Below, one piece after another: positions 11,271 through 51,601 of a stretch of DNA of 64,000 bases; positions within the stretch are counted from its first letter, which is position 1; each line of letters starts with the position of its first letter. The notes under the pieces were generated by a model. That model worked only from the letters and a program-made list of their open reading frames with translations, was not told the DNA's origin and did not search any database. Position numbers and translations under genes: made by a program. The DNA comes from a virus (taxonomy: Duplodnaviria > Caudoviricetes): positions 32,001 through 96,000 of the IMG/VR virus record IMGVR_UViG_2595698832_000001; one strand, written 5' to 3'.

Positions 11271-12463
11271 CTTAAATTTAAGTCTAAGTCTAAGTTTAAA
11301 ATATATGTTAGGTTGCCAGCATCGTAAACTTTACTAAATCCATTTTTACTCATTATTACAGATTCTGTTTCACTTTCATTATAATATCTAATTATATCTT
11401 TATCGAATAATTCTTTTAATTTATGTTTTTGGAATTTTTGTCTTGCATATACATTACTTTCATTTATATAATAATAATTTGGATAAGTTTCTCTCATTAA
11501 TTTAAAACCTAGAGTTTCATATATAGATCCTTTGCTGAATCTTCTGTTAGCATAACTAATAACTGAAATCGGCTTATAATCCCTCAAAAACGCCTTAAAT
11601 AACTTCGAGGCACCACCTTGAACAGTTATACCTTGCTTAACACAGAATCTAATTAATTCATACTGATATGCTTTATTAAATCGTGGTTTACTAAAAGTCA
11701 TACAAGCTACCAGATCATAATCCTTATATAAACCATAAGCAATAACTGCATTACAATAACCTTGTAAATGATTAGAATTTAAAAAATCTTTAAGATCTTT
11801 GTTATTAATTTGTTTAACTACACAACTTCTAGCGGGTATTTTTATATTTCCTCGCAATTTATTTTTAATCATAGAAACCCATAAATCTATATTATCACTT
11901 TCAAATATATGAAATACATCTATCCCAAGAGCTTTATATTTTTTAGTAATTTTTAAATTATAATTAGGCCACATCGAATCTAAATTATTAAAACTTATGT
12001 AATTAATACCTAAATTAATGCAAGGTATAAAAATATCTAAATCATTAGATTCTAAAAGTTTAATGTCTATATCCAATGTTTTCAGTTTATTATATAAATC
12101 TTTTATAGCCGAAGTATTTCTTTGTTTGGTTTTGATTTTAGGTTTAGGTTTAGGTTTAGTCTTAACTTCGATTTTAGAATGTTGATTAATAGATTTAGAA
12201 ACCTTTAACCCTATATTCATATTCTTAATTTTAAATTGTTTAATGCATTCAGGGTTATCACAACATTTTTTACGAACTGGTGATTCAAAAACACCTTTGT
12301 GTATTTCACAAATAAAGTGAGTTTTCTTATATTCTTTTAATATATTATAAAGATCTGGATTTAATTTTTTAAGATCACATAAAGTAAACCTTGAATTATA
12401 TAATTGATTATAGAATTCGTCTAAATCTCCATCTTTAAAATTTCTAATATATTCAGCTTTCAA
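11264..12463 (-). CDS. Hef-like putative homing endonuclease
   Basis: DIFIP..IFE..ARSC..NHLQG..ELIRFC..GGASKL..SYANRRFS..YDAG. Confidence 0.7.
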   Translation of the reverse strand: MKAEYIRNFKDGDLDEFYNQLYNSRFTLCDLKKLNPDLYNILKEYKKTHFICEIHKGVFESPVRKKCCDNPECIKQFKIKNMNIGLKVSKSINQHSKIEVKTKPKPKPKIKTKQRNTSAIKDLYNKLKTLDIDIKLLESNDLDIFIPCINLGINYISFNNLDSMWPNYNLKITKKYKALGIDVFHIFESDNIDLWVSMIKNKLRGNIKIPARSCVVKQINNKDLKDFLNSNHLQGYCNAVIAYGLYKDYDLVACMTFSKPRFNKAYQYELIRFCVKQGITVQGGASKLFKAFLRDYKPISVISYANRRFSKGSIYETLGFKLMRETYPNYYYINESNVYARQKFQKHKLKELFDKDIIRYYNESETESVIMSKNGFSKVYDAGNLTYILNLDLDLNLSS

Positions 12464-12475
12464 TTTATTAAACCT

Positions 12476-13865
12476 TTATAAAATTATATGTTTTAAATTT
12501 TCTATGGAATCAGATTCGGATTCCCATATATAAAATACTTTATAACCTAACTTAGCAATAAAATTAAGTCTTTCAAATGTTCTATCATATAATTGTTTTG
12601 ACGTTGCGCCGATAAACAATAATTTAGAATCATTTGAGTAACCGTGCCAGAAATTACCCAGGTATTCAAATACTAGTTTATCACCTGGATCAATATTAAT
12701 TGAATTGATTGTTAATTCTTGGTTAGTTTCAATATAGCCATCAACTTTGTATTTAGTACCAGGTATTAAAAATTGTCTAATTAATTTTAAATTGTAAATA
12801 GATTCCACAAAATCTAAAAATTTTGCTTCACTTTCACCAAACTTTCTAAGTGTTGGGACATCTATATTAAATTTGCTTTTTGAATTAGTAACTGTAGTTC
12901 CGTTTAATCCAAAATACTCTTGAAATTTAATTTTTAAAAAATATCCATTTTCTATAAAATTATTTTTAATAAATTCTTCATTGTAGTCTTTATAATTTTT
13001 TAAATGTTTATGCTTTATATTAAAATTTATATACTCTGGATATAATTCAAATAATAAATCCTCTGGAAAATTTCTAGGTAAGTTTAAATGATCTAAAATA
13101 TATATTAATTTAAATGATTCTTGATACTCTGGACTTTGAAATATCCAATCATATCCATATTTTTCTTTATTAGTAGCTTTAGCTTTAGCTTTAATATCTG
13201 GATTTTGCATAGCGCTTTCATACCCATATTTTTCTTTGTTGGTAGCTTTAGCTTTAGCTTGAATTTCAGGGCATTGCATAGGATTTTCATATCCATATCT
13301 TTCTTTATTAGTAGCTTTGATTCGCTCTCTATGTTCGGGTATTTCAAAAGTGTAATCATACCCATATCTTTCATTATTAGTTTGTCGTCTTTTTAAATCT
13401 ATTGCTTCGTAATCCAAATTGCGATGAGCTTCTTTTATAGCTTCTGTGTTGTTATATTTAGAATCTCCGTATCTTTCTAAATTAGTCTCAGCACGTTTAC
13501 TAACTACTTTGTTATAATAATCAGGATCTTGGGATATTGTGATACGTCTTTTTTCTGCTTCTTTTTTATAATCTCGCTTCTTATTGCCTTCTATAATAGC
13601 TTCTCGTAGTTTTTAGTTTTTTAGATTCGTAAAATTTTAAACATTCTAGTTTATTACAAGGTTCTTTAATAAATTCGAAGCAACATCGACATATTTTGAA
13701 ATTTTTTCTCTTGTAGAGATAATCATCAACAAAATCGAAATTATTAAAACGTAAAACTTTAATTATTTCAGATAAATCTCTCTTTAAAGAGTTTAGGTAT
13801 CTATATATTTCATTGATATCGGTTAACGTTTGTATTTTTTCAGTAATGTAAGATTTTTTAGCCAT
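12476..13865 (-). CDS. Putative homing endonuclease with TNxERYG repeats and C-terminal Vsr-like domain (frameshift near 13580)
   Basis: Repeats KATNKE(R/K)YGY; VDGY..EYLGNFWHG..GYKVFYIWE. The frame of 12476..13417 stays open up to ~13580. Confidence 0.65.
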
Positions 13866-31723: not shown

Positions 31724-32419
31724 TAGAACCTACCAAATACATCATCAGAATTTGTATAAAAATCTTTTGTTTCTTGTTGTTGTTTATCTTTAATAGAACT
31801 CAATTCATCGAAATATTTTTCAAGCTCGTTATGCATATCTGTATTAGGTGTTTGCTTGTCTAATAATTCGTCAGATCTAATAACAAAATCACTTTCAAGT
31901 TCATCAGATTTTTTAAATACATAAGTTTTGCATTTAAATTTATAAACTATTTTTATATTGATTATAAAGAAATACGTTATTTAACCCAAAACAATCTAAC
32001 GTAATTTCGGTAATTTCAAGAATCTTTCCACTTGGAACGATTATTAAAGATCCTATTAAATCGTGAATTCTGGAATCTGGTAAAGTTACATCGTATTCAT
32101 TCTTAGAATTCATTGAAGATTGAACTAAATTAAATGTGGAAATTTTAGAAACATATAAACCTATACTTGTATCTAACGGAACACCAAATTGGGTTTGCAA
32201 CCTTTCATATTGGTCAAATTCTTCTGAATTTTCTGGCATACCAAATATTTCAAAACAAGCTCTATTGTCCGCTTTAAAATGACTAAAATCACCAAATGTT
32301 AAATCCCTGTTAATTTTTTTGGTAATGATTAATTTAAGTGGAGCACCATAAAGTCTAATGAGTTCTTCGGTAACAGATCCACTCAGATCATATTCATTAG
32401 TATGCTGGTTAAAATTCAA
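31723..32419 (-). CDS. gp14: Neck protein (gp14-like), frameshift near 31945
   Basis: EELIRLYG..DLTFGD..FG..GSLI pattern. Confidence 0.7.
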
Positions 32420-42872: not shown

Positions 42873-42990
42873 ATCATTAAGCTTTTAAGCTTTAGCTTAT
42901 AGTTATTAAACATTTTAAGCTTTAGCTTTATTTTTTAAAACTTTTATAGCTTTAAATTAAAAATAAATAATTTAAAACTCAGGAATTTTA

Positions 42991-44595
42991 ATGAAAGAAT
43001 TAGTAGCATCGTGGCTAGCACGCAGATTTACAGATAATGACTTTAGAAGTGTTCTCAAAAATGTCGTTCTAAAAGATGGTATAGGTAAAGGCGCCAAACG
43101 CCCAGATAATGCTACCAATTTTGTGAATACAAAAACTGGTGAATTAATAGAACCTACTAAAATTCGTGAATTTATCAAAGCTATGAATGTGGAGGTTCAA
43201 ACTCGTAATAATTTTTATAAAGGTAATACCGCTTATCAAAATGTTTCTCAAGTTACTCAAAGTGGTATTTTACAGGGTTCTGTGGTTTCAAACACACCTT
43301 ATACTGCTATGCAGGTTGTTTTAGAATCATTTGTAGGTGATGGTATTAGAAATTTTGGAACCGCAGTTCAAGCAGATTTTAATCAAGTTAAATTAAATCA
43401 AAAATCTTTATTTTTAGCACACGGTAATTATTTCGCAAGATTAGAATTTACAGCAAGTGCGATTGCTAATATTTCTGGTGGTATAAGATTAACTTATAAT
43501 CAGTCTCAACTTTGGTATGATCAAGGTAGATCAGAAGTTAATATTAATTATGATGCTTTAACAAAAATATTAGCTCTTGAAAATTTTACAGATGTAGAAA
43601 TTGGTATAGCAGATTTTAGCTCTAAAAAAATTAAATGGTTTAATAACGTTAAACTTAAAGCAAGCACATTAAAATTCACAGTTTCGCAAAATACAGAAAA
43701 TGCTAATAAAACAGTGCAAAAACGTATAGTTTCTGGGTATTTAGATTTTACAATTGATCAAACTATTGAGGATACAATATCTGAGAAATTAAGAGGTGCT
43801 TTGATCACAGCTGCTAGATTTAATAAATTCAAACAATTATTAAATAAAGCTGAAGTTGCTTGTTTATGTGATTGTAATTATTGTACTTGTGATTGTAATT
43901 ATTGTACTTGTGATTGTAATTATTGTACTTGTAATTGTAATTATTGTACTTGTGATTGTAATTATTGTACTTGTGATTGTAATTATTGTACTTGCAATAA
44001 TAATAAAGAATACACTGATAGTGTTAATTATTGGAATGGTGTTGTTTGTACTTGTAATGCGAATATTACTTGCCAAACTCAAGGTCCTGGATATACACCA
44101 GTTTATACAAACAAATATATGACTGAGTGTTCTTGTCAAGGTGATAGAAGTGTTCCGCAATACAACCAATACGGTCAAATATATGGTTATGCGTGTAGAT
44201 GTAATGCTAACTGGATTAATTCTGTTAGACAACACGCTACCGTAACTCAAGTATGTTCTTGTAACGTCGACAAGCAATGGACTAAAAATATTACAGGTAA
44301 ACCAATTTGGGATAAAAAATCTACAGGTCAAATCGATAATATTGTCAACAACAATACTTCAAATTCACAAACAAGCACTACTGTAAGAGTTTGTGTTTGC
44401 GATACAAACGTCACGATAGCCGCACAATGTGCTACAAATAGAACAATGGCTTATGTTGATGGATCAACTGGAAGTCAAGGCGGTTACAGATGTGTTTGCG
44501 ATACCAACACAAATAGACAAATTGCTTGTTCTGCTAATAGAGAATATAAATATGTCACTGACTATACTCAATTTCAAAATAAACAATACAATTAA
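42991..44595 (+). CDS. Cys-rich repeat protein, late-expressed; candidate radical-SAM substrate
   Basis: No Cys in first 290 aa, 35 Cys in the rest, including 6x C(D/N)CNYCT; AATAAATA upstream. Confidence 0.75.
   Translation: MKELVASWLARRFTDNDFRSVLKNVVLKDGIGKGAKRPDNATNFVNTKTGELIEPTKIREFIKAMNVEVQTRNNFYKGNTAYQNVSQVTQSGILQGSVVSNTPYTAMQVVLESFVGDGIRNFGTAVQADFNQVKLNQKSLFLAHGNYFARLEFTASAIANISGGIRLTYNQSQLWYDQGRSEVNINYDALTKILALENFTDVEIGIADFSSKKIKWFNNVKLKASTLKFTVSQNTENANKTVQKRIVSGYLDFTIDQTIEDTISEKLRGALITAARFNKFKQLLNKAEVACLCDCNYCTCDCNYCTCDCNYCTCNCNYCTCDCNYCTCDCNYCTCNNNKEYTDSVNYWNGVVCTCNANITCQTQGPGYTPVYTNKYMTECSCQGDRSVPQYNQYGQIYGYACRCNANWINSVRQHATVTQVCSCNVDKQWTKNITGKPIWDKKSTGQIDNIVNNNTSNSQTSTTVRVCVCDTNVTIAAQCATNRTMAYVDGSTGSQGGYRCVCDTNTNRQIACSANREYKYVTDYTQFQNKQYN
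43867..43992 (+). repeat. 21-bp tandem repeat x6
   Basis: TGT(G/A)ATTGTAATTATTGTACT. Confidence 0.95.
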
Positions 44596-44757
44596 AACTC
44601 AATTAACATATAATCAGCTTGAAGTTCTTAAAAAGAGCTTCAATGCTTTTTAAAAATTTAAGATCAAAGATTTAAAACTAAAGTTTAAATTTTAAAATAT
44701 TTTTAAGTCAAAATATATTATAATTATTTTATCAAAGCTGTATATAAAGGAGATATA

Positions 44758-45838
44758 ATGAATTATTTAGAACTTAAAAATATGGCAGAGAATTTAAAAG
44801 ATTCTAATTATAGGTCAACAAAATTAAACGATTTTAAATTCTATACTTATATATTGTCAGATTATAAAAACTTCAAAGAAAATAATACTTTTTTCATAAG
44901 AGGTTTAATGATAGATTCTAAATCTATATTAAACAAAGATACTTTAGCACCTGGTATATCGATACCAATGCCAAAATTCTTTAATATTAATGAAAATGAA
45001 GATTGGATATTACCAGATTCTACAAATCTTGAAGATTTCACTATAGTGACAAAATACGATGGTTCTTTAATGATACCTTATGAATATGATGGTATAAAAT
45101 TTAGAACTAAAATGTCTATTGACAACGATCAAACTAAATTAGCTAATAAGTATATCAAAAATAATCCAGATATATTAGATCTAATAAAAAATAATCCAGG
45201 CACCCAGTACTTTTTTGAGTTGATATCACCTTTAAATAGAATAGTGGTAGACTATAATAAAACTGAATTAAAATTAATAGCTGAATTAGATCTTAGAACA
45301 TTAGAATTTAAAATTCACGAAACTAACGAGTTTAATTTTAAAGATTTAAATATTAGGACTCTAAAAGATCTTAAAGATTATATAAACACCATATCTAATT
45401 ACGAAGGTGTCATATTACAGCATAAAGTAACTAAAAAAGTACTACAAGTTAAAAACACAAGAATATTTAGACTTACATAATACTGTAACTAATTTAGATT
45501 TAAAAGTGATATACAAAATGATATTAGAAGAAACTATAGATGATGTGTTACCAAAATTATCACCAGAAGCTGTGGCTTATGTTGATTCTGTATCTAATTC
45601 AGTAAAAGTTAAGTTAAATGAAATATTAGATTCTATAGATTCTAATTATATTAAAGCTAAAGATCTTGAAGCTCCAGCTTTATATATAAAAGATTTGAAT
45701 ATAGATCCTATAGCCAAAGATTGTTTATTTAAATTATGTAGAAATAAACTTAATTTAGACAACGTCTTAGATCAAGTTAAAAAATCTATGTTAAAATATA
45801 ACAAATTGCGAGATATTAAGGTTTTTTTAAAGCTATAA
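44758..45838 (+). CDS. rnlA: RNA ligase 1 (T4 RnlA-like), frameshift near 45440
   Basis: PKFFNINE, KYDGSL, FELISPLNRIVVDY, EGVI. Confidence 0.85.
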
Positions 45839-45991
45839 ATTATATAATATTAAAATCAAGTCTTAAATCAATCTTTAAAAGGTTTTTCTTAAATGAATTC
45901 ATTTATATATTATATTGCAGTTTACGGCGGGATAAGTGTGATTTTGAGTGTTTTTGCAGTATATATTTCTCATAAGTTTTAAAGGTATAAA

Positions 45992-46405
45992 ATGAACACA
46001 ATTAAACTAACTTGGAATGATGTTCACCAAGCTTTGCATAATCTTACAAATGAAGTAGATCTTAAAAATTTTGATTGTATAATAACTCCCAATAGAGGTG
46101 GATTAATAATAACTAGTATGTTGCAATACACCCAGGGTGTTAAATTACCTGTTTATGTAATTAATGATTCTGATGTAATCAACATTCAAAATCATAAAAA
46201 AATTTTGTTTTTAGATGATATTAATGATACAAGTAAAACAATATTTAAAATACAAAAAGTTTTTAATGGTCTCATAACATTTAAAACATTATTTGAAAGA
46301 TATAATAGTCCATTTAAAACTGAGACTATCAATATCATCTTGAATGATGCTTGGCTAATTTTTCCTTGGGATGTTGAACCAGAAGTTTTAAATCTAAGAA
46401 AGTGA
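45992..46405 (+). CDS. Type I purine phosphoribosyltransferase (Gpt-like)
   Basis: RGGL, FLDDINDTSKT PRPP-binding motif, WLIFPWD. Confidence 0.8.
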   Translation: MNTIKLTWNDVHQALHNLTNEVDLKNFDCIITPNRGGLIITSMLQYTQGVKLPVYVINDSDVINIQNHKKILFLDDINDTSKTIFKIQKVFNGLITFKTLFERYNSPFKTETINIILNDAWLIFPWDVEPEVLNLRK

Positions 46406-46414
46406 GTAATTAAT

Positions 46415-46756
46415 ATGCTAGTACCAAAAATAATCAGAAATTCAAAAGTTTATAGATTTATAAAAAATATCATTAAATTCAGAAATGAATTAATAATTTG
46501 GAGACCTTATGAGCCAATATTTGATTTAAAATTGATTTATAAAATGCTTAAAATCAAAAGAGAATATTGGCTTGATGATTGTGGTGGAGCAGCTTACGAA
46601 GGTATGGAAAAAGAATTAGATACTTTAAATAGACTCTTAAATGAGTTAGACTTAGTATTTAAATATTCATATGATGGTGATGACCAAACTGCTATGATCC
46701 ATTTTGATATTTTTATGGAAATTTATAAGAAAAATGCTTTTAAATTGTGGTGTTGA
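46415..46756 (+). CDS. hypothetical protein
   Basis: 113-aa ORF in operon. Confidence 0.55.
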   Translation: MLVPKIIRNSKVYRFIKNIIKFRNELIIWRPYEPIFDLKLIYKMLKIKREYWLDDCGGAAYEGMEKELDTLNRLLNELDLVFKYSYDGDDQTAMIHFDIFMEIYKKNAFKLWC

Positions 46757-46844
46757 TACGAAAATGCGTGTCAGAATCTAAAATACTGAAATATTTAAGT
46801 TATATTTAATCATAAATACGATATAATATATCTAAAGGAGAATT

Positions 46845-48015
46845 ATGGAATATTTACCAAAAACTCAAGGACCTAAAAAACTTTATAATTTTGATATTAA
46901 TATGACTCAAGCGTGTACACTAAGATGTACATACTGCATTCAAGATTTTAATAAACAAAAATTTGAAAAATTATCACCAGAACTTACTAAGAAAATGATA
47001 GAAAAGTTTGATTTCTTGTTAAATTCGGTAGAATTCAATAAACATTATGATGGTATTAGAATTTCATTCTGGGGTGGAGAACCCACAACTAACCTAGAAG
47101 GTGTTAAAGAGTTTGTAGAATACTATAGACACAACCCAAAAGTTTGTTTCTTTATGTATTCAAATGGTTATAAATACAACCACGTTTTTTGATTACTTAG
47201 AAACATTTAAGTATATGCCAAATGTCGGGTCAGAACCAAAATTCTTGACTCAAATATCTTATGATGGAATGGCAAGTCACGATTCAGATAGACTTAATTT
47301 GCAAGGTAAAGGTTCAGCACAACAAGTTAAAGAAACTGTTTTTGAACTAGCAAAAAGAAATATACCTTTTATTGTTCATCCTACGATTGCAGCTAAGAAT
47401 TTCGATAAGATTGCTATTAATTATTTCGAATTTAAAAGAATGTCCGATGTCTTAGGTATTGAACTTAATTATAACCCTACGATAGATTATATGTCTAAAT
47501 ATGATTTTACAAAAGAACAATTAGAAGCATTGACAAATACTTTAAAAGAAGAATTCTTAAAAATACGTGATGCTGAAGTTGAGTTCTTTAAAAGAAAAGG
47601 ATATTTTAATTTTGGTTGGATGAATCCAAATAGAAGTATTTGTACAGCAGGTGATGGCTATTCTGGTATTGAATTGGATGGTAAAATGTATGCTTGTCAC
47701 GGTGTTTTTAGTGAAGAATATAAACCAAATAATGTTTTAAATGATATTAATTTTGAGAATGTAAAATTTACTGATACTTTAATCAAAAGCTCACAAGATC
47801 ATAGAAAAATATTAAATGAAAATATGCCTAAAGCTTGTCAAGAATGTTTTACACATTATTGTTTAAAATGCAATTCTACAAAATTTGGTATTTCTAATAA
47901 AGAAACCTACGCAGAAAGATGGACTGATTATAGTTGCCAACCTGGTTTATGTTATATGTTTAAATTCATAGGTAAATATAGAATAGCTTTGATGAAATAT
48001 ATTCAAGCTTCTTAG
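46845..48015 (+). CDS. Radical SAM enzyme with SPASM domain (frameshift near 47185)
   Basis: CTLRCTYC (CxxxCxxC), GGEP; C-terminal CTAG..ACH..CQEC..CLKC..C..C. Confidence 0.88.
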
Positions 48016-48118
48016 AATTCTAAAATAGTTCTAAATTGACACTATAGTGTTCTATTTTAGAAACTATACTGACATATACCAGAATCCAAAAATAAATATA
48101 CAAAAAGTAGGATTTATT

Positions 48119-51100
48119 TTGAGTATAATAAAATCAACTGCTAGGGGTATTAGAGGTACTTATAGAGCAGGCAAAAATGCAGTTAATAGTGTTAATTCTG
48201 CTTATAATAGTGCTGTTAGTGGTATAAACAAAGTAAATTCTGCTTTAGATCCTATGAATACAGTTAGAAGTGCTACTCAAAGACTCAATAACTGGATGGA
48301 TTCGGATTCTAAAGTATCTAAGACAACTACAAAAAAATAATGATTCAATTGTTAGTGAATTAAACAATGTAGCCAATGAAGTTGTTAGTGCAGCTAAAGC
48401 TTTAGATCCTATGAATGCTAGAAAATTAACTGAAATTTCAGAATCTCTTAAAAAATATTTCAAAACAAATCTCGGATATTAAAAAAAGGATTAATAGATA
48501 ATCAAGATACAGAAATAAGACACCAAGGTTTTGATAAAAACGTTCAAAATGTTTCAGAATCTAAAGTAAATGTACCTCAGAATAAAAGTTTTTTTGATAA
48601 ACTTTTAGGTTGGTTAGGAGGTTTATTAGGTATATCGGCAGGTGCTTTATTACCATTATTGGGATCATTAGGAAGTTTTTTAACAAAGCCTTTAGATTTC
48701 ATTTTAGATCTATTAAAAGGTGGTATTAATAAATTATGGACTTTATTTGAGCCATTATTAGGCCCTATTATAGACCCTTTAAAAAATGGATTTGAATTCT
48801 TAAAAAATAAATGGAACTCATTAGTAGATTTTATCAATAAAAAAATTAATATTGGTGATAAATGGAAAATCTCAGATAATGATAATCCAAAAAAATCCAA
48901 AATCACCAAAAGTAAGTTCATCTAATCCAGCTAAAGAACAATCTTGGATGTCTAAGAAATGGGATTCTTTTAAAGGTGCTATGCAAAATGGATATGATTG
49001 GGCTTCGCAAAAAGTAGATGATTTAAAATCATATGCTAGTAAGAAATATCAAGATATTAAAAAATTCTAAAGTAGGTAAAATTATATCTGCAGGATATGA
49101 TAAATTAAAAGCAGCACAAAAATATATTGTAGAAAAAGCTATTGAAGGATTTGATGCTGTTAAAAATATGGTAAGCTCTGCTTGGGATTCAGCAGTTAAA
49201 GCAGCACAAAAAGGCTTTAATATGCTTAAAAAGTTTGCTTTAGCTCCTATGGAGAAATTTGTTAGTTCAGTAGGTAAGAAACTATTTGGAAGTTCTAAGT
49301 TATTTTCAGTTCTACCTAGTATACTTGGAAATCTTGAAAAAATAGGAGCAAGATTAGCTGCTAGTGGTGCTAAAATAGCTTCAAAAGCTTTACCAGGTGT
49401 TGGATTTGCTGTAGGTATATACCAAGCTTGGGATTTCTTTACTCGTGGTAGATGGGTATTGGGTTCAATAGCAGCACTTAGTGCTTGTATTTCATTATTA
49501 CCAGGTATTGGTGGGATCATATCTATGTGTTTAGACTTAGGTTTATTTGCTACTGATATTATAACAAGTCCAGATGATGTAGATAATCTTAATAAAGAAC
49601 AAAATGATTTAGTAAATACAGCAAATAAAATGGTTCAAAATAATGATACTGGAGGTATTTTAGAACCAAGTCAAGTAGAAAAAGATAAAGCACAATCTGG
49701 AGTTCAAGATTCAAGTTCTAATTCAAGTTCAAGTAATAAAGGATTAAATGCTAAAGTACTTGATGGTAAATCTGCTAACGATTTTGCTGCTTCGTATACA
49801 CCACATAAAGTGGATTCTAACGGAACCGTTATAGCTGCTAAAACAGGTTCTATATATAAAGGTTTGACCTGGGTAGAATCTGAAAAATATGATGCTGAAA
49901 AGCAAGCTTATTTTAAGAAACGTGAAGAAAAAGAAGCACAATTAGATGCGCTTTTTGAACAAGGTCAAAAAGCTATGAATTCTGGAGATACTGAAACCTT
50001 TAATAAATTAGTTACACAAAGAAATAAATTATCTGATGAATTATCTAAAATGAGCTTAGATTCTATCGATTCTAAATATCAAGCTATTGGACAAGCAAGA
50101 ATTAAAAAATTAGCAAAGCCAAGGAGCTAATGCAGATTTATCGGTATTTAGAACTAATGGAGATTCAAGTACTAGTTCAGGGGGAACTGATACAAAACCA
50201 GATTCTACAAATGCTAGTGCTAGTGTAGCTTCGCAAGCTTCTGGTTCAATCTCTCCGGCGCAAGTTCAAGGAGCTCAATCCACAGAAGCCCAAGGCTCGA
50301 GTTCAGGAGGATCTCCAGGAGCAAGAGCTGCAGCAGAATTCAGTAAAAAATATAACTTAGGAACTAGAGCAACAGGCGCTTGCGCCAAGTATGTTAGATC
50401 TTATTTGATGGCAGCAGGATATCCATTATCTGGTTGGCCAGTAGCAGCTGCAGATTATATAAATTTCTTACCTAAATATGGTTTTACACCAGTTCAAGGT
50501 AGAGCTTCACAAATAAGCCCAGAAGTAGGTGACATTTCAATAACCCAGAGATTTGGAAATCACAAATATGGGCATATTGCTATTTGGAATGGTTCTAATT
50601 GGGTTTCAGATTTTAAACAAAACTCAGTTTCAATTTATAGAGACGTAAATGCTTTCGGTGGGCCGGATGCTAATATAACTATTCTAAGAGATACTTCAGG
50701 TCAAAATCCATCTCAAGAACTTGTAAATCAACAATTATCCAATATGAATAGTTCTTTTAAAGTTGCATTAGGGGGTGGAGGTGCTAAAGGTGCTGTTTAT
50801 AGTTTGGATTCTGGAGTTTCAAATGTTGTTACAAATACAGCAGGCGCTGCAGCTAGTGTTATAAGTTCTGGTGTAAGTAGTATCCAATCTTTTGCTAATG
50901 CTAATTCTATTACAACCAGAAAATCTTTAACTCAAATGTATACAGAATCTGGATTAAGTACTAGTTTTGGGTCAAGTTCAGTCCCACAAGCTGCTAGCCC
51001 AGCTGCAAATTCAACACCAAAAGAAACAAAAGCAGATATTAAGCCAGCTTCAAAACCAGTAGCGTCAACTCCAAAAGCAGTTCCTAAAGCTGCTAGCTAT

Positions 51101-51601
51101 GGTACACCACACAGAGGTCAATATGATGCAGAAACAATGGAAGACTTTAACAACTTAGGAGATAACTTTAGTAAATCCAAATCGCCAATTTCTTTACCTG
51201 GAGATTCGAAATCTAACGTTCAGACTAATAATGCTGGTTCAGTAGCACCAGTAACTCCTGTAGTTAATATAAAGAATAATTCATCTCCAAGTGATTATTC
51301 TTGGGCTTCTAAAAACAGTTTTAAAATTGCTAGAATGTTTGGTTTAGATGGCATCAGCGATTACGAAATACTTAATGAAGGTTCAGAATCTGACTTTTTA
51401 CAATCTTATGGTATGTCTAAAAGACAAGCAATTCAATCAGCAGGGTTAAACAATACAGTACAAACCAAAGTTGCTAGTAATGTTAAAACAAAAGATGTGA
51501 TACCAGCTGTCAATAAAACCCAAATAAATAATACCAATATACAGACTAAAACAAAAGAAACTTCTAATAAAGATTTGACTGATTCTTTTGTTTTGAGCTA
51601 A
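48119..51601 (+). CDS. Tape-measure/baseplate hub-like protein with NlpC/P60 (CHAP-like) peptidoglycan hydrolase domain; several frameshifts
   Basis: W-periodic helical repeats; CAKYVRSYL..GD..YGHIAIWNGSNWVSDF; lies just upstream of gp48. Confidence 0.6.

Follow-up and report, generated by a model that had tools for sequence, protein, structure and literature searches.

A candidate radical SAM/SPASM enzyme and Cys-repeat substrate pair in CP220-like Campylobacter phages and uncultivated viruses

Why would a phage encode a protein built on Cys repeats and, a short distance downstream, a SPASM-type radical S-adenosylmethionine (SAM) enzyme? The question is raised by IMG/VR virus record IMGVR_UViG_2595698832_000001, of which one stretch of 64,000 nucleotides (nt) was analysed (hereafter the window, i.e. 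positions 32001–96000 of the 182,833-bp record). It bears on an older one, dating from 2010, as to why the CP220-like phages have so many radical SAM genes: CP220 carries 11 and CPt10 12 of them, for which the available part of the report by Timms et al. proposes metabolic roles, noting a 21-bp repeat separately and without a link to these genes (PMC2853527). We consider it likely that the window encodes a dedicated SPASM enzyme together with its fibre-like Cys-repeat substrate, the repeats of which would be crosslinked, and this reading offers a concrete answer to that question.

The 5.2 kb round the Cys-rich gene show 92–98 % identity to 13 GenBank records of CP220-like Campylobacter phages (Firehammervirus), and the gene order is identical to that of CP220 and F379, i.e. 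a gp19-like tail tube gene, a topoisomerase piece, gp32, a GroES-like gene, a hypothetical gene and the Cys-rich gene, followed, in the CP220/F379-like order, by RNA ligase RnlA, a phosphoribosyltransferase, a small open reading frame (ORF), the radical SAM gene and a very large gene. Judged by its sequence, the window is that of a CP220-like Firehammervirus. The features with which the argument is concerned are the following (aa, amino acids; AF2, the AlphaFold model; bit scores refer to profile matches):

42962–42969, + strand: AATAAATA, late-promoter-like motif; the ATG of the 534-aa ORF lies 22 nt past its last base
42991–44595, + strand: coding sequence of the 534-aa Cys-repeat protein, a homologue of CP220 gp140/CPT_0180; phrog_26958 (function unassigned)
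43108–43860, + strand: N-terminal Cys-free domain (about aa 40–290), two helices plus a beta-barrel insert as predicted by AF2
43861–43995, + strand: Cys heptad array (aa 291–335), CL plus six C(D/N)CNYCT plus C, encoded by 21-bp DNA repeats
43996–44592, + strand: C-terminal region (aa 336–534) with CxC[ND]xN units at C353/355, C402/404, C422/424, C468/470 and C501/503, plus C513
46845–47192, + strand: N-terminal piece (115 aa) of the radical SAM enzyme, with CTLRCTYC as CxxxCxxC; PF04055 35 bits (cut-off 29.5), Fer4_12 30 bits
47164–48015, + strand: C-terminal piece (283 aa) of the radical SAM enzyme, with SPASM-type Cys, i.e. C-x12-G-x4-C ... CxxCx4CxxC ... C; TIGR04085 SPASM 23.6 bits (cut-off 27), anSME 40.8 bits, PapB 40.0 bits
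47180–47185, + strand: run of six T, with an extra T at 47185 where relatives have five T, by which the frame of the enzyme gene is shifted

The 534-aa protein contains 35 Cys, the first of them at residue 291, in agreement with the original prediction, made on this DNA without database searches, of a Cys-free N-terminus of 290 aa followed by 35 Cys. The repeats listed there were all located as well, i.e. six exact C[DN]CNYCT units at residues 293–334, encoded by the 21-bp DNA repeats, and the dispersed units CTCNAN (residue 353), CRCNAN (402), CSCNVD (422) and CVCDTN (468 and 501). Six 21-bp repeats are annotated at this array in the CP220 record, and a 21-bp repeat in CPT_0180 is pointed out in the available text of Timms et al. 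(PMC2853527). Outside the array, CxC[ND] occurs five times against 0.21 expected, a count that none of 10,000 shuffles of residues 335–534 reached, and in an alignment of 20 full-length homologues C422 and C424 are invariant, and conservation reaches 90 % or more at C353, C355, N358, C468, C470, N473 and C513. No Pfam (0 matches) or NCBIfam family matched the protein. The 21-bp repeats are also covered by ORFs in alternative frames (43856–44122, + strand, 88 aa; 43864–44331, − strand, 155 aa) with VIVIIVL-/TIITITS-type repeats, which are by-products of the repeat DNA and not genes.

How widely this protein is distributed was addressed by a word-indexed search, which returned 75 related proteins, and by a HMMER scan of 1.84 billion cluster representatives, which gave 230 matches at E≤0.001. 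Some relatives are full-length, down to about 22–28 % identity, with conserved dispersed CxC[ND]xN units and one to six heptads, and most match only residues ~260–340, i.e. a helix of the type I-x-A-x-x-h-N-x-h-x-x-x-h-N leading into C-x-C-[DN]-C-N-Y-C-T repeats. The variation in repeat number that the original prediction had suggested examining does occur: six heptads are present in 6/7 isolates read, four in phage WX1 and one to six in the metagenomic relatives, whereas contigs from four sequencing runs break within the 21-bp array and are thus uninformative on this point. The WX1 homologue with its four heptads (L099, 101–1663) is annotated as 'putative N-acetylneuraminate pyruvate lyase', a label without Pfam or NCBIfam backing.

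The pairing of the two genes was followed from both sides. On the enzyme side, a profile of seven orthologues with 28–34 % identity to the CP220-type enzyme, in which ten Cys are invariant (C24, C28 and C31 plus the C-terminal C266, C284, C331, C334, C339, C342 and C369), retrieved 77 viral loci, of which 28 score at least 200 bits and the other 49 no more than 112 bits. With both locus sets pooled, 38 strong enzyme copies (≥200 bits) formed 27 clusters at 90 % identity, and the identity between these clusters is 30 % in the median (range 22–88 %). When CxC-dense is taken to mean a minimum of eight Cys in the ORF and three or more CxC in a span of 45 residues, automatic detection finds such an ORF on the same strand and no more than 3.6 kb from the enzyme in 25 of the 27 lineages. 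In 16 of them the two are at most 75 nt apart, in one the ORF lies 302 nt upstream, and eight, the Campylobacter phages among them, have it at 2.2–3.6 kb; the other two lineages (L028 and L036) hold degenerate Cys-rich ORFs of like architecture, as seen by eye. The co-occurrence of the two genes, proposed as a check along with the original prediction, is thus borne out. Neighbours failing the strict heptad pattern carry a hexad form, e.g. CICNSDCSCNLVCSCHNDCGCNYSD, and then an S74 domain, so that the common unit is CxC[ND], as dispersed in the C-terminal part of the 534-aa protein.

On the substrate side, an alignment of homologues led to 18 viral-contig loci, two of which are CP220 and CPt10, and ORFs with an N-terminal CxxxCxxC lie round the repeat gene in 11 of the 16 non-Campylobacter loci. 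All 36 CxxxCxxC ORFs submitted match PF04055, 34 of them above the cut-off. At loci L012, L015, L017, L018 and L019/L020, the CP220 enzyme finds its best match (196–267 bits) in the preceding ORF, which ends 10–15 nt before the repeat gene or overlaps it. Across the loci fetched with the enzyme, CxC-dense ORFs number 50/761 within 4 kb of a radical SAM match vs 4/444 farther away (odds ratio 7.7, duplicates not removed). The 49 weak enzyme loci are no clean negative control, as 20 of them also have CxC-dense ORFs, some adjacent and of other repeat types (CDCxxRTAV, CSCNxxCYGY), which suggests a wider family of phage pairs of SPASM and Cys-repeat genes. Such other Cys-repeat proteins near more distant SPASM genes are encoded at L060 (4990–5874), L058 (335–1486), L052 (9402–9959), L062 (7174–8028) and L072 (11201–12295), and include the CDCxxRTAV and CSCNxxCYGY types and a 364-aa ORF with 81 Cys. 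As far as these loci can tell, adjacency is specific to one SPASM subfamily and not a property of radical SAM genes in general.

Among 50,697 phage records, both genes were found solely in Firehammervirus, in 13/13 records, and these are so closely related that they cannot count as independent; three more records have weak enzyme matches (23–26 % identity); Firehammervirus is the only cultured example found of the pair. A set of 185,579 prokaryote species, one genome each, gave only three strong enzyme matches, all on contigs of 2–6 kb from metagenome-assembled genomes, and a fourth, weaker match on a 161-kb contig (L121), where a heptad protein lies 3.1 kb from the enzyme gene. In these collections, the enzyme subfamily is nearly virus-only. 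Viral contigs with the pair reach 227 kb; CheckV estimates five of them as 44–81 % complete, and two of these five have a Gp23 capsid match above the cut-off. Since the pairing persisted through a divergence of the enzyme to about 30 % identity and a shift of the repeat among 6-, 7- and 8-residue forms, there is good reason to believe that the enzyme acts on the 534-aa protein. The reading first put forward for this locus, i.e. a post-translational modification pair, gains support from the pairing in 27 lineages, from which we infer the modification itself.

Could the proximity in the Campylobacter phages nevertheless be coincidental, the enzyme serving nucleotide or DNA modification or host metabolism, perhaps together with the adjacent phosphoribosyltransferase? 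A purine phosphoribosyltransferase does lie between the two genes ('queuosine biosynthesis protein' in F379), and Firehammervirus DNA carries modified guanine. The metabolic roles proposed for the CP220 radical SAM genes in the available text of Timms et al. would also fit (PMC2853527). However, the orthologues in 27 lineages keep the Cys-repeat neighbour and not the transferase, the SPASM peptide-maturase architecture is conserved, and neither QueE nor the ribonucleotide reductase activase NrdG nor any nucleic-acid-modifying family is among the 25 best of 44 NCBIfam families matched by the intact enzyme. Clustering with QueE or such activases had been named at the outset as the outcome that would tell against a modification pair; a QueE-like PHROG reaches only 24.8 bits for orthologue L017, vs 115.5 bits for phrog_1802. 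We thus regard a coincidence as extremely improbable.

If the enzyme acts on the repeat protein, what kind of enzyme is it? Its gene starts 2,250 nt past the stop of the Cys-rich ORF on the same strand, so that the prediction of a CxxxCxxC plus SPASM gene about 2 kb downstream holds for strand and distance, but not for a single ORF, the frame being split at 47185. The gene is intact in 13/13 GenBank relatives, with 389 aa (e.g. CP220 and F379) or, in the IBB_35 contig, 378 aa aligned, and the extra T is missing throughout the contigs of four runs, which belong to four studies. RnlA (44758–45838) is likewise split into ORFs of 240 and 110 aa by an extra A at 45441 that is absent from CP220, F379 and the four-run contigs. 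Most likely, on this sequence comparison, both insertions arose in assembly or are mutations private to this record; the four runs come from samples other than that of the window (best word share 0.85).

The motif CTLRCTYC at residues 24–31 assigns the enzyme to the radical SAM superfamily (PF04055), for which the intact CP220 protein scores 39 bits (cut-off 29.5). With SPASM hidden Markov models (HMMs), the enzyme scores 16.8 bits for PF13186 (cut-off 21.5) and 23.6 bits for TIGR04085 (cut-off 27), and the orthologue L009 passes with 24.3 bits. The comparison with SPASM maturase HMMs, also suggested initially, places PapB (NF047865) first, at 76.9 bits for the intact enzyme and collinear over residues 17–311 with positions 6–294 of the 330-position profile, followed by anSME (TIGR03942) at 60 bits; both scores lie below the membership cut-offs of 340 and 349 bits, respectively, as does that for TIGR04463, the CrpC-type maturases of Cys-rich proteins (32.9 vs 525 bits). 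Further NCBIfam matches are to the ScfB-related, CcpM, mycofactocin, CXXX-repeat and SCIFF maturases and to QhpD (TIGR03906, 43.8 bits), and the cyclophane-forming YhhB, AmcB and dynobactin DynA maturases are matched as well. Among solved structures, the profile of the seven orthologues finds 5wgg (E 6e-19), which we take to be CteB, as the best match, then 8vpo and anSME 4k37. By these profile comparisons, the closest characterised relatives of the enzyme are the thioether-forming SPASM maturases PapB and CteB, and anSME. Given that the nearest of these relatives make thioethers and that ranthionine links made by a SPASM enzyme have a precedent in CrpA (PMC13692751), a thioether product is quite possible by analogy, if just short of an even chance.

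The pair could also be real and its chemistry a different one, i.e. an attack on Asn, Tyr or Thr (an aromatic C–C cyclophane on Y-C-T), an epimerisation or an oxidation of Cys (anSME-like formylglycine or a dehydro residue). Asn and Tyr/Phe are conserved as strongly as Cys in C[DN]CN[YF]C[TP], anSME is the second-best family, YhhB, AmcB and DynA are matched too, and the enzyme reaches no curated cut-off. Yet the heptad, octad and hexad variants beside strong orthologues share CxC[ND] and nothing else, the hexad form CICNSDCSCNLVCSCHNDC has no Tyr, the target motif of anSME (C/SxPxR) is absent, and the best family and structure matches are thioether formers. Another chemistry is thus rather unlikely.

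What, then, would be the role of the repeat protein? Peptidase_S74 is an intramolecular chaperone of trimeric tail fibres and spikes, e.g. endosialidase and the T5 L-shaped fibre. Of the 150 repeat-module proteins scanned, 22 have Peptidase_S74 right after the array, joined at ...CNCNYSDxRLKxNI, and S74 is also present in the L032 and L026 partners; a Hint domain was matched in 1/150, and three others show a similar Hint-like start after the array by eye. At L012 and L017, the repeat protein ends in SDxRLKxxIxYh, i.e. the first S74 strand, and a separate ORF of 91–93 aa (L012, 10525–10806; L017, 10326–10601) holds the rest of the split domain. In 6/8 loci tested, genes immediately upstream of the cluster match tail-fibre PHROGs.

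The promoter region points in the same direction. A late-type promoter had been predicted before the 534-aa ORF, and the motif AATAAATA at 42962–42969 is indeed a TATAAATA-like motif shortly upstream of a start, as in T4-type late genes. In the whole genome, 22 of its 46 copies lie 8–45 nt upstream of ORFs of at least 100 aa, where ~0.9 would be expected by area, and the same applies to 38/99 copies of ATAAATA (2.0 expected); the enzyme gene has this 7-of-8 version, ending 27 nt upstream of its ATG. Eleven other genes of the window carry the motif, six of which match virion or morphogenesis PHROGs (tail tube twice, head scaffold, head closure, head maturation protease and DNA end protector), the other five comprising PhoH and a transposase as exceptions and three genes without assigned function. 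Since the motif is position-enriched and mostly found on virion or morphogenesis genes, AATAAATA is a late-type signal, and the 534-aa protein is, from the motif upstream, probably late-expressed. No run is recorded as RNA among the sequencing runs listed as containing the stretch.

Structure prediction gives a consistent, if partial, picture. In the AF2 monomer, the predicted local distance difference test score (pLDDT) is 55–88 over most of aa 40–290, where helix 1 (aa 55–75, IREFIKAMNVEVQTRNNFY) is of the type h-x-x-L-R-x-A-I-x-x-E-x-x-R-R common to the relatives, aa 135–257 form the beta-barrel insert and helix 2 (aa 274–289) continues straight into the first Cys; both helix motifs are present in every relative read. 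Residues 294–534 have pLDDT 23–45 and no usable model, and in a small S74-bearing relative the Cys array has pLDDT 33–37 between confident flanking domains; over both models, the arrays as such range from 23 to 37. This low confidence fits, weakly, a region that may need partners, metal or modification, and proves nothing. The insert resembles tail-tube or baseplate folds weakly in a VIA-wide fold search (Z≤6.8, below the stand-out level), the BFVD fold search gave one match only, to an unnamed protein (E 3e-4), Foldseek with the small S74-bearing relative found nothing in the PDB at E≤0.001, and the ESM Atlas search gave no usable match. Compared with its relatives, the Campylobacter protein is, by its sequence features, a derived form, as it has a beta-barrel insert of ~120 residues between the helices and a 200-residue C-terminal extension with dispersed units, and lacks S74.

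From Peptidase_S74 in the relatives, the tail-fibre PHROGs upstream of the cluster and the late-type motif, the 534-aa protein is probably a trimeric fibre-like structural or morphogenetic protein, and on balance we lean towards its sitting in the virion as a fibre. The fibre suggested in the original prediction is thus strengthened by the S74 domains of relatives and the tail-fibre genes beside the cluster, and weakened by the lack of S74 in the 534-aa protein itself.

A trimer also brings to mind an explanation without any modification, in which the Cys repeats are a metal or Fe–S structural element of the fibre, and the two genes are neighbours through a shared fibre or radical SAM gene island; in a variant, the many radical SAM enzymes of the phages would obtain clusters or electrons from the Cys protein. 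An analogy is offered by the HxH iron sites in the T4 gp37 needle. Three Cys per heptad would amount to nine per layer in a trimer, trimers being implied by S74, and AF2 does not fold the array alone. Radical SAM genes are also plentiful, i.e. 11 in CP220 and 12 in CPt10 (PMC2853527) and up to eight at the loci, and metal binding is raised for CrpA by the authors of that study in the part of it available (PMC13692751). Against this, the adjacency concerns one SPASM subfamily and not radical SAM genes in general, and the enzyme gene abuts or overlaps the repeat gene in 16/27 lineages, which suggests co-translation. Metal binding and crosslinking are, moreover, compatible with each other. As an explanation in place of crosslinking, we judge metal binding quite improbable.

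Under the favoured reading of an enzyme and its crosslinked substrate, the enzyme would bind the repeat region, perhaps via the conserved helix leading into the first Cys, and take hydrogen from a neighbouring residue, to whose carbon a Cys sulfur would then be bonded. The outcome would be thioether staples (of the ranthionine or sactionine type) in each repeat, and the stapled array a rigid rod, resistant to proteases and reducing conditions. The S74 context puts the array where trimeric stalks lie, so that it could occupy the position of such a stalk, before a chaperone that is either cleaved away or provided in trans, with the stapled rod at or near the fibre end. In the precursors of RiPPs, peptides that are made by ribosomes and altered after translation, the maturase recognises a leader and the core is freed by proteolysis. 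All relatives read have a conserved helix before the first Cys; no protease or export gene was identified, and the size of 534 aa argues for a modified protein over a peptide product.

Several points weigh against this reading. The evidence for the modification consists of gene context and family resemblance, and the enzyme is far below all curated NCBIfam cut-offs, so that its chemistry cannot be read from family membership. Its match to 5wgg begins at residue 98 of that chain, i.e. the phage enzyme is without the N-terminal domain of that protein, which is like a RiPP recognition element (RRE). Many of the loci have several radical SAM genes, up to eight within 19 kb, so that some proximity is expected anyway. 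In 5/16 substrate-side loci (L005–L008 and L016), no radical SAM ORF is present in the DNA covered; in four of these five the contig ends about 1 kb after the repeat gene, and L049, a longer-contig relative of L007 and L008, has the enzyme gene 4 nt downstream of the repeat gene. In Firehammervirus itself the pair is not adjacent, as RNA ligase, phosphoribosyltransferase and a 113-aa ORF lie between, and in the window the enzyme is frameshifted while the Cys-rich ORF is intact. Finally, the 534-aa protein does not match Peptidase_S74 (PF13884), and CPT_0180 is not among the 11 identified CP220 virion gel bands in the available part of that report (PMC2853527).

Is there a precedent for such a pair? 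The closest is found in Methanococcus voltae, where the Cys-repeat protein CrpA receives ranthionine crosslinks from the SPASM enzyme CrpC; in the portion of that study available, CrpA is, like the phage protein, a large protein with a Cys-free N-terminal part, a C-terminal Cys-repeat region and a SPASM gene beside it, and AlphaFold confidence is low for the repeat region in both (PMC13692751). In contrast, the phage enzyme falls outside TIGR04463 (the scores are given above) and lacks the N-terminal RRE predicted for CrpC, the phage repeat is the 7-residue CxCNYCT or the dispersed CxC[ND]xN instead of a 17-residue unit with CxxQ/D, and the phage setting is viral, fibre-like and S74-linked, CrpA being an archaeal cell protein. 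Phages are not mentioned in the main text of that paper.

PapB with PapA (freyrasin) and CteB (thermocellin) likewise combine a radical SAM core and SPASM with repeated Cys-containing target motifs, and in the phage enzyme, as in the PapB model, the core comes first; the links made by PapB are from Cys to Asp or Glu, as stated in the available text (PMC9413430). Their substrates, however, are short leader–core peptides with CxxxD/E motifs that become secreted natural products, whereas the phage substrate is a protein of 160–830 aa with CxC[ND] units and features of a structural protein. A SPASM target that is a protein subunit and not a natural-product peptide is known from QhpD, which crosslinks Cys to Asp or Glu in QhpC, the small subunit of quinohemoprotein amine dehydrogenase, according to the passages at hand (PMC13692751). 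That system is non-viral and has three specific crosslinks in an enzyme subunit and no repeat array, and the phage enzyme's QhpD match is far below the cut-off of 453 bits. In HxsA/HxsB/HxsC, a His-Xaa-Ser repeat protein is matured by radical SAM enzymes (PMC13128918, as far as available), and the repeat protein, the paired radical SAM/SPASM enzymes and the role in phage–host conflict resemble the present case; Hxs is, however, a bacterial defence system, its repeat is HxS and not CxCN, and HxsB reaches only 23.2 bits, on the N-terminal piece of the enzyme. As regards S74 fibres, the array ends in ...NYSDxRLKxNI, the S74 start, in the 22/150 relatives described above, and the 534-aa protein itself is without S74; a literature search found no S74 fibre with a Cys-repeat stalk or a radical SAM partner. 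The same search, which left most subscription journals outside its coverage, found no paper that links the repeat protein with the radical SAM enzyme or describes CxCNYCT repeats.

What is new here is thus a setting that is viral and linked to fibres, and an enzyme subfamily restricted to viruses, the principle having an archaeal precedent: radical SAM maturation is well known for Cys-rich peptides, and for whole proteins it is only recent, in an archaeon, as described in the accessible part of that work (PMC13692751). It is tempting to speculate, if only tentatively, that many large uncultivated myoviruses as well as Firehammervirus have a tail fibre or tip with a Cys-x-Cys-Asn stalk that is stapled by a dedicated, virus-specific SPASM enzyme. 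If true, a virion structural protein would for the first time be seen to undergo post-translational crosslinking by a radical enzyme, and at least one of the 11–12 unexplained radical SAM genes of the CP220-like phages would have a substrate and a purpose. Crosslinks, if they exist, would give phages a novel means of hardening or shaping an adsorption organelle and would offer enzymatic peptide stapling a new repeat scaffold, and cultured phages are available for a direct test of the pair.

The Firehammervirus version is, by comparison with the other loci, a scattered form of the cluster. At the other loci, two further radical SAM genes usually come before the enzyme gene and a conserved 200-aa gene after it, whereas the best matches to those genes in this record (G000) are far apart, at 110523–111626 (301 bits), 11873–12832 (115 bits) and 106027–106719 (29 bits). 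Outside the window, the scattered best matches to cluster members (G000:C1:104000–112000, 11873–12832 and 139732–140601) include two radical SAM genes, a 230-aa 'GYFITDDNREE' protein and a UDP-glucose dehydrogenase-like gene. In F379, two putative homing endonuclease genes (L002, 5011–6428) lie between the Cys-rich gene and RnlA and are absent from the window and CP220.

A further conserved element of the cluster is an acidic, predicted helical ORF of 72–100 aa directly upstream of the enzyme orthologue in seven loci, for which neither a Pfam family nor a detectable homologue in this genome was found. These ORFs, and the one directly upstream of the enzyme gene in the window, are:

L032 9748–9987, L026 4247–4465, L023 9750–9998 and L033 9796–10014, upstream of the enzyme: acidic helical ORF
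L036 2574–2816, L037 9666–9968 and L029 9744–9983, upstream of the enzyme: acidic helical ORF
46415–46756, + strand: 113-aa ORF directly upstream of the enzyme gene in the window; phrog_25482 (function unassigned)

The 113-aa ORF was considered as a counterpart of the small helical ORFs and rejected, since it does not match an HMM of them. Downstream of the enzyme gene, the region 48047–51601, which is one very large gene in CP220 and F379 ('endolysin' or 'putative membrane protein'), is broken up in the window into at least six shorter ORFs in different frames, which suggests more frameshifts in the assembly. Lastly, two paralogous ORFs outside the window (G000:C1:118374–118892, 172 aa with 47 Cys, and 118957–119811, 284 aa with 76 Cys) show a period-3 CxxC pattern, e.g. 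DCYDCTDCYDCNEC, and thus a different kind of Cys repeat.

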